A stretch of DNA of 24,000 nucleotides from Desulfobacteraceae bacterium. GTDB taxonomy: Bacteria > Desulfobacterota > Desulfobacteria > Desulfobacterales > SURF-7. The stretch is taken from NCBI GenBank assembly GCA_003599865.1, contig QZKS01000095.1, positions 55,248 to 79,247 on the forward strand, written 5' to 3'. The position numbers were made by a program, and so were the translations under genes. Under the pieces are notes generated by a model that ran no database searches, was not told the DNA's origin, and was given only the letters and a program-made list of their open reading frames with translations. The stretch's first letter is position 1, and every line of letters starts with the position of its first letter. Below, in pieces: positions 840 to 4,905 of this stretch.

Positions 840-1832
840 ATGCTTCCAAATCTGTTCTTATGTCTTGCGGGATTTATCCTGCTGTATTTTTGCGCAGACT
901 GGCTCGTAAAGGGCTCATCGGCTCTGGCACGGAGTCTGGGTGTTACGCCGCTGGTGATCGGGCTGACCGTGGTTGCGTTTGGAACTTCTGCGCCGGAGCT
1001 GGTTGTCAGCCTCGTTTCTTCCATCAAGGGGAAAAGTATGATTGCCGTTGGAAATGTTGTGGGAAGCAATATCTGCAATATCGCACTGGTGCTCGGAATT
1101 TCCGCTCTTTTTCAACCCATTGTATGTCAAAAATCCGTCATCCGGAGAGACATACCCATTATGCTGGCTGCGTCCTTTGTATTGCTTGTTTTCTCCTTGA
1201 ATTCAAGGATTGGGACACTGGAAGGACTGATTTTATTTATGGGATTGATCATATATATCATCACAAGCTATCGGTTTGCCGTAAAAGCTTCCATCACGCC
1301 GATGAGCCATGAAGTCCCGTTTGCAGATACCGGAAGAGGCGGAACGCTGTTTCTTCTTGAATCCCGGCCCAGACAGATCCTGTTGATCATTGTCGGCATA
1401 TCAGGAGTGATATGCGGAGCCCAGCTTGTGGTTGACGCGGCAACAAAGATTATGCAGGTTCTCGGAGTCAATGAAAAATTTATCGGATTGACCATTGTCG
1501 CCGTGGGCACTTCCCTTCCGGAGCTTGCAACTTCCGTGGTCGCTGCTGTTCGCAAGGAGATGGATATCAGCATCGGCAACCTTGTCGGAAGCAATATTTT
1601 CAATATTCTGTGCGTAATCGGCGCGGCCGCGATTGTTCATCCTCTCCAACTTCCCGGCGGTTTCCGGGAAAGCGGACTCGTGATTGACTATTCGGTGATG
1701 ATACTGATCAGCTTGCTTCCCTGGGTGATGATGAGAAAAACATATACCATCAACCGTCTCGGCGGCGGGATACTGCTGGCGTGTTATGCCGGTTATTTTG
1801 CATATCTTCTGACTGTTGCGTTTCAATCATAG
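840..1832 (+). CDS. Ca2+/Na+ antiporter, CaCA family (YrbG-like)
   Basis: 330-aa polytopic membrane protein. It carries the two internally repeated alpha-repeat motifs GTSAPELVVS...GNVVGSNICNI and GTSLPELATS...GNLVGSNIFNI, which are characteristic of CaCA exchangers. Confidence 0.9.
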   Translation: MLPNLFLCLAGFILLYFCADWLVKGSSALARSLGVTPLVIGLTVVAFGTSAPELVVSLVSSIKGKSMIAVGNVVGSNICNIALVLGISALFQPIVCQKSVIRRDIPIMLAASFVLLVFSLNSRIGTLEGLILFMGLIIYIITSYRFAVKASITPMSHEVPFADTGRGGTLFLLESRPRQILLIIVGISGVICGAQLVVDAATKIMQVLGVNEKFIGLTIVAVGTSLPELATSVVAAVRKEMDISIGNLVGSNIFNILCVIGAAAIVHPLQLPGGFRESGLVIDYSVMILISLLPWVMMRKTYTINRLGGGILLACYAGYFAYLLTVAFQS

Positions 1833-1871
1833 GGAAAGAGGACAGATCCGGATTCCGAATCAGCTGCGCAA

Positions 1872-3104
1872 TCATCTGTTTTGAATATGTTGAATCAGTT
1901 TATCCCATCCCATCATTTGCACCTTTTTTTTCATATCCCGATACCCGTCGCCGTATAGCGGATCAGAATCTTTTTCCATGTTCTCCAGCAGAATCATTGC
2001 AAACTTCGAACCGTCCTCCTGATATACTTTCATGGTTCCCAGATTGCAAAATCCTTCTGTTTCCGGATCGGTGAGCTTGATATCCTTCTCATTCAACCAG
2101 ACATGCATGATTTCATGGGCAAGAACGCCGTTAAACTCGGATAACGGCAGGCCATTTAGAATGTATATTGACTGTTTTCGGGAAACTGTCCGGTCGTTCC
2201 GATAGGATACCATGCATGTTGTGAATCCCTTGGAGTTGGGGGTATGCCGGGATTTTGAATATTGTTTCAGATGTTCCATATCCACAACATGGACCGGAAT
2301 CGTTGTCGGAATATCGGTGATTCCGATGGAGTGCAATACGGCCAATACGGTGTTCCGGCTTTTCATCACTTCATCACTTTTTTCTACAACCGTTGGTCTG
2401 CAGAACCCGCAGATGGTTCGACCGTCTGTATAGCGGTATCCGCCTTTGGAGGTTTTATTGGAAATAATCCGCATGCAGGAACTGCAAGCGATAGTCCGGT
2501 TATCACCATGTTTTTCATGGGCCTGGTTTCCCCACGGGTCGATCATCATCCGGCCTTCAATGGGTCTTTGGCATACAACACATTTGTGCAGTTTGAAATT
2601 CCGGAAGCAGTCGATGTGATAATTCCGGGACTGATCTTTTGTATATTTGCTGGTAATTGGTTTGCCGCAGATGTCGCATTTGAGTCTGGTTTGCTGCAAA
2701 TGCTCTTTTAAACAGGCAGCATGAAATTTCTGATCTCCCAAAACCTGCCATTTATCACCCAGCAGCTTCCCGCACCGTGCACAAACGAGACCCATTGTTT
2801 TTTTGTAACAATCCGGATGATAAAAATCTTTATCTTTATGCTGAAATGATCCGGTGATGGGCTTGCCGCATCTGCTGCATAGAAAGCAGTCTGGATGAAA
2901 CCGATAGCCGTCGGCCTTGATGTGTCCTCCCAGAAGCGGCTTTTGGCAACGGTCGCAGAGATTCCCGCCCGTCCGGGAAGAACCTGTTGAATAATTCGGA
3001 CTGTTCCCGTTCTGGGCATAAACACGGTCAGCAGACAGTCCGGACACCAGAATGAAAACGGCTGTTGCCAATATCAATAGTCGGTTACGTGAAATACAGT
3101 CCAT
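1872..3104 (-). CDS. exported LIM-type zinc-finger protein fused to a DA1-like HExxH metallopeptidase domain
   Basis: The N-terminus MDCISRNRLLILATAVFILVSGLSADRVYA looks like a signal peptide. A LIM-like double finger follows: CDRC-x16-HPDC-x2-CSRC-x17-HPDC. Two further C-x2-C-x16-H-x2-C half fingers come next. The C-terminal domain has CSSC...CGFC, LAHEIMHVW (HExxH), TEGFC and DPLYGDGYR. These parallel the plant DA1 peptidase motifs as I recall them (LAHEMMHAW, EEGICQV, SPVYGDGFR). Confidence 0.8.
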   Translation of the reverse strand: MDCISRNRLLILATAVFILVSGLSADRVYAQNGNSPNYSTGSSRTGGNLCDRCQKPLLGGHIKADGYRFHPDCFLCSRCGKPITGSFQHKDKDFYHPDCYKKTMGLVCARCGKLLGDKWQVLGDQKFHAACLKEHLQQTRLKCDICGKPITSKYTKDQSRNYHIDCFRNFKLHKCVVCQRPIEGRMMIDPWGNQAHEKHGDNRTIACSSCMRIISNKTSKGGYRYTDGRTICGFCRPTVVEKSDEVMKSRNTVLAVLHSIGITDIPTTIPVHVVDMEHLKQYSKSRHTPNSKGFTTCMVSYRNDRTVSRKQSIYILNGLPLSEFNGVLAHEIMHVWLNEKDIKLTDPETEGFCNLGTMKVYQEDGSKFAMILLENMEKDSDPLYGDGYRDMKKKVQMMGWDKLIQHIQNR

Positions 3105-3152
3105 GATTTTTCACCACTTTATATTCCATACATGATTTCCAATGGTCTGAAA

Positions 3153-3181
3153 ACAATACGGTTGTCCGGATATCCTGTCAA
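3153..3181 (-). promoter_or_regulatory. candidate sigma70 promoter for the LIM/DA1-like gene
   Basis: On the minus strand: TTGACA (3181-3176), a 17-nt spacer, then TATTGT (3158-3153). This sits about 45 nt upstream of the ATG at 3104. GGTGA lies about 7 nt before the ATG as a possible SD. Confidence 0.35.
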
Positions 3182-3366
3182 TAGTTTGCTTTTTCTTTGC
3201 TTTTTTCTTTTGCCAGGGGTATTTTTCTTTACGATGATGATGCCGTTAACAGGTGATTTCCGCCCATCCAGCCGACTGGAAATCGGATGCCCGGTTCAGC
3301 GGATAAGACAACCGGACCACAATTGAAAACCAGACATTTATTTTAACCGGATAAAAAACGATTCAA

Positions 3367-4905
3367 ATGGGATATCGGGAAATCACCATAAAACTTCCTG
3401 TCGGATATGAGGAAGACCATCTTCAAAAACGCATTCAGCAGGAACTGAATGTTTCCGATTTTTCCTATCAGATGGAACAGAAAAGCCTGGATGCCCGAAA
3501 AAAAAGCGATATCCACTGGCTGGTCCGGGTTGCGGTATTTTCGGATCAGTTGGATGGCCAGGACCGGATTCCTGTTCCGGTCCTGGATATCCCGTTTCGA
3601 AAACGAAATCAAAAGATCGTTGTGGTGGGAAGCGGCCCGGCCGGTTTTTTTTCCGCTTTTGTTTTACAGAAGGCAGGGTTTCCGGTGACCCTTATCGAGA
3701 GAGGCTCGGATGTCGGAAAACGGTCGGCCGGCATCCGAACGTTGGAACATACCGGCAGTTTTGATCCCACCGGCAATTATGCGTTTGGTGAAGGCGGCGC
3801 AGGAACGTTTTCAGACGGGAAGCTTACGTCCAGGACCAAAAATATTTCCCGGGAAAAGCAGTTTATTATCGAAAACTATATCCGGGCCGGAGCACCTGAG
3901 GAAATCCGGTATATGGCCCATCCTCATCTCGGCAGCAACAACCTGAAAAAGATCGTTAAAAATCTGAGAAACGATTTGATTCATATCGGCGGTACGGTTC
4001 TGTTTGAAACATTTTGCCGGGATCTGAAAATCAGGGACCATCGGATCGTTTCCGTCATCACAGACTCGGAAAGCATTGATACGGACTATTGTATCCTTGC
4101 GACCGGTCAGAATGCCTATGAAACCTATCGCATGCTGATCGGCCATGGCGTTGCCTTCCGGACGAAAAATTTTGCCCTTGGCTGCAGGGTGGAGCATCCC
4201 CAGGAACTCATCAACCTCGCGCAATGGGGGCAGAAGGAACTGCCGGGCGTCAAGGCTGCGGAATACCGGCTGACAGCCAACACTCCCGGAAGCCTGCCGG
4301 TCTATACCTTCTGCATGTGCCCGGGCGGAATGATTGTCCCCGCGATGCCATATGAAGATGTAAACATCGTCAATGGCATGAGCCTGTATCTTCGGAACAA
4401 GAAATTTGCAAACGCCGCCTGTGTGGCCGGGGTCAGTATGGAAAGGCTCCTGGGAAGGGAGGCGGCACCGATGCAGGCGCTTGAATGGCTGAACAACCTG
4501 GAACATCGGTTTTACGAGTATGCCAAAGGATATCAGGCGCCTTTTTGCCGTATTCAGGATTTTATAGATCAGAAAGAAACGGCTCAAACCGTTGAATCCA
4601 GTTATCCTTTAGGCTTGAAACCGGCGGCTTTATGGGAATTGCTTCCTGCCGACATCAGCCATTCTATTCGGGAAGGACTGAAGGTTTTTTCCCGGAGAAT
4701 AAAAGGTTTTGAAACCGGTGTGATCATGGGACTGGAAAGCAAGACATCCGCTCCAATCCAGGTCATCCGTGATGAGCGGCATCTCTGCGCAGGATTTGCA
4801 AATCTGTTTATGGTCGGTGAAGGGAGCGGCCATTCCGGTGGAATCATCTCCAGCGGTGTTGACGGTATCAAGGCTGCGATGCGGATTATTGAATTATCCA
4901 ATTAA
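3367..4905 (+). CDS. FAD-dependent protein (COG2509-type NAD(P)/FAD-dependent oxidoreductase)
   Basis: 512 aa. It has a dinucleotide-binding motif VVVGSGPAGFFSAFVL. It also has the family-typical motifs FGEGGAGTFSDGKL, HPHLGSN, FCMCPGG and GEGSGHSGGIISSGVDG, and the N-terminal pattern REITIKLPxxxEE...SLDARKK. Confidence 0.85.
   Translation: MGYREITIKLPVGYEEDHLQKRIQQELNVSDFSYQMEQKSLDARKKSDIHWLVRVAVFSDQLDGQDRIPVPVLDIPFRKRNQKIVVVGSGPAGFFSAFVLQKAGFPVTLIERGSDVGKRSAGIRTLEHTGSFDPTGNYAFGEGGAGTFSDGKLTSRTKNISREKQFIIENYIRAGAPEEIRYMAHPHLGSNNLKKIVKNLRNDLIHIGGTVLFETFCRDLKIRDHRIVSVITDSESIDTDYCILATGQNAYETYRMLIGHGVAFRTKNFALGCRVEHPQELINLAQWGQKELPGVKAAEYRLTANTPGSLPVYTFCMCPGGMIVPAMPYEDVNIVNGMSLYLRNKKFANAACVAGVSMERLLGREAAPMQALEWLNNLEHRFYEYAKGYQAPFCRIQDFIDQKETAQTVESSYPLGLKPAALWELLPADISHSIREGLKVFSRRIKGFETGVIMGLESKTSAPIQVIRDERHLCAGFANLFMVGEGSGHSGGIISSGVDGIKAAMRIIELSN

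Follow-up and report, generated by a model that had tools for sequence, protein, structure and literature searches.

LIM-peptidases with predicted export, and the question raised by one gene

Can a protease built with LIM zinc fingers operate outside the bacterial cytoplasm? The question is raised by a gene at positions 1872..3104 of a 24,000-nucleotide stretch of a Desulfobacteraceae genome (contig QZKS01000095.1; hereafter the window), whose product an initial annotation, made from the letters alone, had read as an exported fusion of LIM-type fingers to a DA1-like peptidase. The 410-amino acid (aa) open reading frame that it described is present and lies on the minus strand, as do all features of the gene given below. 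It is a complete coding sequence with an ATG start and a stop codon, while the plus-strand frame over the same interval is riddled with stops. A Shine-Dalgarno (SD)-like GGTGA stands 6 nucleotides (nt) 5' of the ATG, and the second in-frame Met occurs only at residue 104, within the finger array. The translated product is identical to GenBank RJP75219.1, 'MAG: protein DA1 [Desulfobacteraceae bacterium]', an automatic name of the NCBI pipeline that many of its relatives also bear, and more than 100 full-length homologues were found. We conclude that the gene stands alone, is monocistronic and belongs to the bacterial LIM-peptidase (DA1-like) family. As to its function, we favor, with a probability of roughly 65%, the view that the product is an exported periplasmic LIM-peptidase whose finger array docks substrates for gluzincin endoproteolysis.

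The C-terminal half is a predicted gluzincin-type peptidase

Pfam, which the initial annotation had proposed as a check, matched both halves of the protein above the curated cut-offs: LIM (PF00412) with 53.5 bits against 22.9 (E = 2.8e-14; profile positions 1-56 of 58), and DA1-like (PF12315) with 49.8 bits against 25 (E = 3.6e-13). A sub-threshold Pfam match to Peptidase_M78 was also returned, and an NCBIfam search of the 410-aa protein gave no match. The DA1-like match together with an AlphaFold2 (AF2) model delimits a gluzincin peptidase domain at residues 240-410 (1875..2387). Within it lies the catalytic zinc motif H330-E331-x2-H334-x15-E350 (2055..2117), which is present in 92/92 aligned homologues, so that the triad of catalytic zinc ligands and the general base are both conserved. 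Invariant in this alignment are C175, C178, C207, C210, C232, H330, E331, H334, E350, G351 and Y384, and the remaining finger ligands are at least 90% conserved. The HExxH…E signature likewise occurs in 138 of 139 representatives of clusters formed at 50% identity. The parallel to plant DA1 that had been drawn from the C-terminal motifs was upheld: the HExxH falls inside the DA1-like match, and the HEIMH-x15-E spacing is that published for the plant enzyme. All of the C-terminal motifs named at the outset were located, namely CSSC (residues 207-210), CGFC (232-235), LAHEIMHVW (328-336), TEGFC (349-353) and DPLYGDGYR (381-389; 1938..1964). The last of these, delimited by alignment and motif inspection, contains invariant Y384, which by analogy with M1 gluzincins may be the tyrosine that stabilizes the transition state.

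The domain was modelled with confidence. Using the family alignment, AF2 gave a full-length model with a predicted local distance difference test (pLDDT) score of 92.2 and a predicted template modelling (pTM) score of 0.76, poor only at residues 1-3 and 26-45, and a model of residues 172-410 reached a pLDDT of 94.5 and a pTM of 0.91. A profile of the C-terminal half yielded marginal matches (E = 0.15-0.3) to the minigluzincin MJ1213 and to M1 aminopeptidases, and these alignments placed HEIMH and E350-G-F on the M1 HExxH…(N)EGFA. The protein therefore has in common with the gluzincins an HExxH and a downstream Glu, in an 'EGF'-type motif, as the third zinc ligand. It is nonetheless not a member of the M1 or minigluzincin groups, given E values of only 0.15-0.3 and a spacing of x15 versus x18 in M1; only the motif is common to them. 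Taken together, these motifs indicate that the C-terminal half is a gluzincin-type zinc peptidase, as predicted from sequence, with no close relative of solved structure.

LIM and LIM-like zinc fingers precede the peptidase

Five units of the form C-x2-C-x16/17-H-x2-C/H occupy residues 50-73, 76-99, 108-131, 143-166 and 175-199, and are joined by an extra C4 unit, C207-x2-C210…C232-x2-C235. The first two units make up a canonical two-zinc LIM domain (residues 50-102; 2799..2957), as judged from the best stretch of the Pfam LIM match, from PDB sequence matches and from Foldseek. Its eight ligands follow the pattern C50-x2-C53-x16-H70-x2-C73-x2-C76-x2-C79-x16-H96-x2-C99, with a 2-residue spacer between the fingers; the seventh is His, not Cys, a variant also found in the family consensus. 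Sequence matches in the PDB were to LIM proteins only (CRP1 at 2e-9, PINCH and paxillin), and a Foldseek comparison of the full AF2 model with the PDB also returned LIM proteins only. PINCH1 LIM4-5 was the best of these (E = 1.5e-6), Lhx3, LMO2 and FHL were among the further matches, and all were listed at probability 1.0.

Next come two single LIM-type C2HC fingers, or 'half LIM' units, at residues 108-131 (2712..2783) and 143-166 (2607..2678), each recognized by alignment, AF2 model and motif inspection. The initial annotation had described one full LIM-like double finger and two half fingers with C-x2-C-x16-H-x2-C spacing; the residues 50-99 pattern and the exact spacing of the two single units bear this out. 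Its inventory was correct for the fingers that it listed but incomplete, since a fifth finger, C175-x2-C178-x17-H196-x2-H199, had been overlooked. This finger and the C4 unit form a 'LIM-like' double finger immediately before the peptidase (residues 175-235; 2400..2582), recognized from conserved columns and a pLDDT above 90. Its ligands (C175, C178, H196 and H199, together with C207, C210, C232 and C235) are invariant or at least 90% conserved, and it contains a near-invariant D189-x-W-G-N motif. Four CxxC/H pairs have been described for the LIM-like region of DA1 and of a Roseiflexus protein (Dong et al. 2017), and the module of our protein, directly N-terminal of the peptidase, corresponds to them. 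Conservation of all the metal ligands implies that the protein may bind as many as six structural zinc ions in addition to the catalytic one.

The LIM-like module is always kept, even in the shortest relatives (232-260 aa), and the number of fingers N-terminal to it ranges from 0 to more than 5. Longer arrays, with 8-12 CxxC pairs before the LIM-like module, were observed in P0309, P0247, L055, L058, L060, L064, L070 and L076; this amounts to three or four full LIM domains' worth and illustrates how highly variable finger number is in the family. Eukaryotic multi-LIM adaptors (PINCH, the 'four-and-a-half LIM' protein FHL, LMO and paxillin) share with our protein the LIM fold, the ligand pattern and tandem fingers that include 'half-LIM' units. 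However, those adaptors are cytoplasmic or nuclear scaffolds that lack an enzyme domain, whereas the array described here is fused to a protease behind a predicted secretion signal and has His, not Cys, as its seventh LIM ligand.

The N-terminus resembles a cleavable Sec signal

Residues 1-30 (3015..3104) constitute a predicted Sec (type I) signal peptide, identified by sequence inspection, the AF2 model and the junction seen in orthologues. An n-region, MDCISRNR, supplies positive charge (R6 and R8) and is followed by an h-region of 15 aa (L9-L23) and a c-region (SADRVYA) ending in V28-Y-A30|Q31, in keeping with the type-I rules of a positive n-region, a 7-15-residue h-region and small residues at -3 and -1. 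AF2 placed a helix at residues 7-22, then a disordered stretch at 26-45, and a low-complexity linker (QNGNSPNYSTGSSRTGG; residues 31-47; 2964..3014; pLDDT <50) leads to the first finger. In the three closest orthologues, P0002-P0004 (~70% identical), the hydrophobic cores have diverged and the A-F-A|QN junction is kept. Two other signal types were considered and rejected. A Tat signal was dismissed as the n-region S-R-N-R-L-L-I lacks the consecutive RR of the S/T-R-R-x-F-L-K motif and orthologues have a single R or R-H-R, and a lipoprotein (type-II) signal was dismissed as there is no L-[AS]-[GA]-C lipobox closing the h-region and no Cys between residues 4 and 49.

Leaders are widespread in the family. 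They were found in 51 of the first 114 homologues, 11 of these with a lipobox-like L-x-[AS]-C, and in 74/139 unbiased representatives of the 50%-identity clusters. In the pooled set, 176/338 proteins (52%) carry a leader and 126/338 (37%) start directly at the first finger. The uncharged span of the leaders has a median of 16 residues (interquartile range 14-19). Net charge of the n-region averages +1.85 and is positive in 90%, while the 15 residues after the core average +0.11; such a drop from positive charge ahead of the core to neutrality behind it predicts an N-in/C-out orientation, with fingers and protease facing outward. When the conserved half was placed in a neighbor-joining tree, proteins with a leader fell into large coherent clades, among them the clade of our protein and the deepest branches, and ~11 changes of leader state were inferred, some of them from truncated entries. 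Leader-bearing taxa comprise Desulfobacterales, Calditrichota, Zixibacteria, Latescibacteria, GN15, Melioribacteraceae, Gemmatimonadota, Verrucomicrobia and Sumerlaeota; leaderless ones comprise Sericytochromatia, Bacteroidales, Anaerolineae, actinomycetes and Ktedonobacteria. Our protein belongs to the leader-bearing branch, unlike members from Chloroflexi (Anaerolineae) and Sericytochromatia, which begin with the first finger and so look cytoplasmic. Lipobox-like motifs such as 'LLFSAC' and 'FFSAC' mark some relatives (e.g., P0051, P0058 and P0060) as predicted lipoproteins.

We considered whether the N-terminal helix might instead be an uncleaved signal anchor that holds the protein on the inner membrane, its fingers and peptidase lying on the periplasmic side. 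Consistent with such a tether, the AF2 helix at 7-22 gives way to a flexible linker, the uncharged spans of some relatives are longer (upper quartile at least 19), and lipobox-anchored relatives show that membrane tethering occurs in the family. Nevertheless, an h-region of just 15 residues is shorter than a typical membrane span, and the small-x-small V-Y-A|Q is kept as A-F-A|QN in 70%-identical orthologues despite their diverged h-regions; we therefore view an uncleaved anchor as rather unlikely.

A cytoplasmic location, in which the hydrophobic N-terminus would reflect a mis-called start or an N-out/C-in anchor, appears very unlikely. Cys-rich zinc fingers are chemically better suited to the cytoplasm, and the 37% of the family that start at the first finger are evidently cytoplasmic. 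Set against this, the next in-frame Met, at 104, lies inside the fingers, the SD-like GGTGA stands 6 nt before the annotated ATG, the leader is kept in orthologues and leader clades are stable across phyla, and the charge bias predicts the N-in/C-out orientation. The signal-peptide-like N-terminus that the initial annotation had pointed out was thus confirmed in its charge asymmetry, its A-x-A site and its retention in orthologues and in 52% of the family. The export that it proposed, which it would have given up for a cytoplasm-facing anchor, is likewise favored by the predicted orientation. There is good support for the prediction that the Desulfobacteraceae protein is made with a cleavable Sec signal and that its fingers and protease act in the periplasm. 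Predicted export or lipid anchoring of about half of the family is a robust finding, and a mildly surprising one for LIM zinc fingers.

Two observations concern the region between leader and fingers in other members. At the Opitutales loci L025, L027, L028, L031, L032, L034 and L038, a conserved segment of ~60 aa (GxxSEGELxxxxGDxxxLxIxGREYxFxxSRFxxxDxxYxxxW) lies between the two, ~75-95 residues N-terminal to the first CxxC that the DA1-like gene encodes; the same type of verrucomicrobial segment in the related protein P0105 is unnamed by Pfam. P0335 (450 aa, found in the representative search, on a Logan contig of 1.8 kb) has a signal peptide, then a long Q/E/R/A-rich low-complexity region, then fingers, and in composition that region looks like eukaryotic (algal?) rather than bacterial sequence.

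The family is large and predominantly bacterial

Clusters related to the conserved half, counted at 50% identity, were enumerated with an exhaustive HMMER search, which returned 3508 at E <= 1e-3, 2296 at E <= 1e-10 and 573 at E <= 1e-30. Of the 73 genome loci, all those with a taxon label are bacterial, and they span many phyla. No plant DA1 was recognizable among the top 120 matches listed for the profile search or the top 150 listed for the representative search. The DA1-like LIM-peptidase family is therefore large and predominantly bacterial. Bacterial LIM-peptidases had reportedly been noted by 2011, in work by Burroughs, Iyer and Aravind. DA1 has since been aligned with a 'Roseiflexus LIM-peptidase' and the LIM-like domain called ancient (Dong et al. 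2017, citing Burroughs, Iyer & Aravind 2011). DA1-like genes with a UIM (ubiquitin-interacting motif)+LIM+C-terminal architecture have been called plant-specific (Zhao et al. 2014), which is compatible with a bacterial family because the bacterial proteins lack UIMs.

That the bacterium recently acquired a DA1 gene from a plant or another eukaryote by horizontal transfer is, in our estimation, extremely improbable. That LIM and DA1 are best known from eukaryotes, and that DA1-like genes were described as plant-specific (Zhao et al. 2014), might suggest such an origin. It was rejected on the broad bacterial distribution given above, with at least 573 clusters at E <= 1e-30 and exclusively bacterial labelled loci, on a guanine-plus-cytosine (GC) content indistinguishable from that of the flanks, and on synteny with the locus of a 71%-identical orthologue. 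The lack of UIMs and the treatment of the bacterial LIM-like domain as ancient (Dong et al. 2017) argue in the same direction. The initial annotation's description of an uncharacterized bacterial LIM-peptidase holds on the experimental side, but the implied novelty does not, as RJP75219.1 was already named 'protein DA1' and bacterial LIM-peptidases had been published. Taken together, these findings identify the protein as a correctly annotated, ordinary member of a family recognized since 2011, and its novelty is limited.

A proposed mechanism and its relation to plant DA1

Plant DA1/DAR proteins (Arabidopsis DA1, At1g19270) and the Desulfobacteraceae protein present LIM, LIM-like and HExxH-x15-E peptidase modules in the same order, and the bacterial 'LIM-peptidases' (e.g., that of Roseiflexus; Dong et al. 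2017), with LIM, LIM-like and DA1-type peptidase modules, belong to the same family. In the plant enzyme, mutating the HEMMH histidines abolishes cleavage of BB and DA2; the LIM-like cysteine C274 is also required, the C274Y substitution abolishing peptidase activity (Dong et al. 2017). Several differences nevertheless separate our protein from plant DA1. The plant motif HEMMH-x15-EE (Dong et al. 2017) reads HEIMH-x15-EG here, the second Glu being replaced by Gly; extra single fingers are present between the LIM and LIM-like modules; and a predicted Sec signal assigns the protein to an extracytoplasmic location, in contrast to the nucleo-cytoplasmic plant DA1. No UIM was found by Pfam at E <= 1, the N-terminus consisting of signal peptide and linker, whereas plant DA1 has two. 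Lacking UIMs, and predicted to reside in a compartment without ubiquitin, the protein could not use the plant activation switch; the ubiquitin activation that the initial annotation cited for plant DA1 therefore does not carry over.

We propose the following mechanism. Sec export and cleavage at A30|Q31 would deliver a mature protein of ~380 aa to the periplasm, where it would take up a catalytic zinc ion and as many as six structural ones. The LIM-like module, which is always present and confidently modelled together with the peptidase, would pack on that domain and, by analogy with DA1 C274Y, may be required for its activity. Eukaryotic tandem LIM domains bind extended segments of their partners. 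By analogy, the variable N-terminal fingers could form a docking scaffold that grips one or a few specific envelope proteins along extended segments and offers these segments to the gluzincin active site, which would cleave them internally at specific sites. Activity might be constitutive, or might be controlled by zinc occupancy or redox state of the fingers or by substrate availability. Most likely, then, the protein functions as a periplasmic gluzincin endopeptidase.

Several points weigh against this view. The DA1-like Pfam match spans mainly the catalytic core, its best stretch covering profile positions 66-124 of 213, although similar core-only coverage is seen in other bacterial members. 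Residues 172-410 had no significant structural neighbor in the PDB by Foldseek (best 1oz9, E = 0.15), and with no resembling solved structure the assignment of the peptidase fold rests on motifs. The export call was made by rule-based inspection of classical signal features plus their conservation. Cys-rich zinc fingers are unusual outside the cytoplasm, where their thiols tend to oxidize. The docking role is argued from analogy, and we know of no experimental study of a bacterial DA1-like member.

We likewise asked whether the finger array might mainly sense zinc or redox state, or buffer zinc, and switch the peptidase according to metal or thiol status rather than dock substrates. The density of Cys/His sites is unusual in an exported protein, loss of a LIM-like cysteine abolishes the peptidase activity of plant DA1 (Dong et al. 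2017), and ion-transporter genes are neighbors of the gene at three loci: a Na/Ca exchanger in the window, CNNM/CorC in L001, and CobW, DUF1007 and NicO in L004. These transporter neighbors, however, are of differing families and are not conserved across 77 loci, and the spread in N-terminal finger number, between 0 and more than 5, is a typical trait of modular binding domains. We thus consider a sensing or buffering array improbable and retain periplasmic endoproteolysis of docked substrates as the preferred function.

In crops, DA1 peptidases determine how large organs and seeds become, and to our knowledge no structure of one exists. Their bacterial relatives, which are small, free of the ubiquitin layer and modelled very confidently, are well suited to structural and biochemical studies of the core mechanism. 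Secretion signals or lipoboxes predicted in about half of the family point to a group of zinc-finger envelope proteases in mostly uncultured, often anaerobic phyla, and such proteins pose a chemical puzzle, namely how zinc sites rich in Cys stay intact outside the cytoplasm. It is doubtful, though conceivable, that exported LIM-peptidases represent a major unappreciated class of envelope protease, that they act as a periplasmic substrate clamp gated by zinc or redox state, and that ubiquitin-independent LIM-like control is ancestral to the regulation of plant DA1. For the gene itself the result is modest, an annotated member of a known family that is uncharacterized in bacteria, with the size of the exported branch as its one mildly surprising point.

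The gene stands alone at its locus

The gene is flanked downstream by a convergent Na+/Ca2+ exchanger gene (840-1832) and upstream by a divergent gene for a flavin adenine dinucleotide (FAD)-dependent protein (3367-4905), an arrangement in which it must be transcribed alone. Surrounding housekeeping genes (SurA-like peptidyl-prolyl isomerase, endonuclease III and ThiI/NFACT-R) lie in synteny with those around the 71%-identical orthologue. When open reading frames within 4 kb were clustered across the 77 loci from many phyla, no neighbor family was conserved beyond single lineages; annotated examples were unrelated housekeeping genes. A conserved operon partner was rejected on these grounds, the clustering having revealed lineage-specific synteny only, and the initial annotation was right to list no linked partner.

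Signals for transcription were less clear. A sigma-70-like match, TTGACA-17-TATTGT (10/12), lies ~50 nt 5' of the ATG (3181..3153), and a terminator-like hairpin with a T-rich tail lies 11 nt past the stop (1845..1861), both as consensus matches only. Promoter- and hairpin-type matches were no commoner than in shuffled sequence (for promoter-like matches, 2 found versus 3.2 expected), the region upstream of the gene is not conserved in L001, the locus of the closest orthologue, and an Rfam search of 1700-3500 returned nothing. The candidate promoter that had been assigned to the gene therefore stands as a consensus match, but has neither enrichment over shuffles nor conservation in L001 behind it. 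An imperfect 24-nt palindrome at 3150-3193 (71% complementary, core GGATATCC/TCCGGA) overlaps the promoter-like -35/-10 and could be an operator; it too lacks conservation in L001.

Gene neighborhoods of other family members differ from one another. Ion or metal transporters recur near the gene, with the Na/Ca exchanger in the window and CNNM/CorC in L001, but their families differ and the recurrence may be coincidence. In one Sericytochromatia genome (L004:3365-8077), the LIM-DA1 gene encodes no leader and comes after a metal-homeostasis cluster (CobW/COG0523 GTPase, MerC, DUF1007 and NicO). At L002:2519-14581 and L006:2388-13791, which encode the leader- or lipobox-bearing homologues P0058 and P0015, the order is GlnD, MscS channel, GNAT acetyltransferase, LIM-DA1, a giant Ig-like/PKD surface protein (1118-1423 aa), DnaJ and M48 peptidase. 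The surface protein beside LIM-DA1 could be a candidate substrate, in an arrangement confined to these two related loci. Finally, short leaderless DA1-like proteins of 232-256 aa, with the LIM-like finger and peptidase only, occur in Bacteroidaceae, Lachnospiraceae, Alistipes and Rikenellaceae. At L050:8001-12259 such a short gene adjoins genes for a vWA protein, a PP2C phosphatase and a protein kinase-vWA fusion; the arrangement is repeated in L052, and the same gene families are found within 4 kb in L042, L043, L037 and L041. This context differs from that of the Desulfobacteraceae gene and resembles a mobile signalling or conflict-type cassette.

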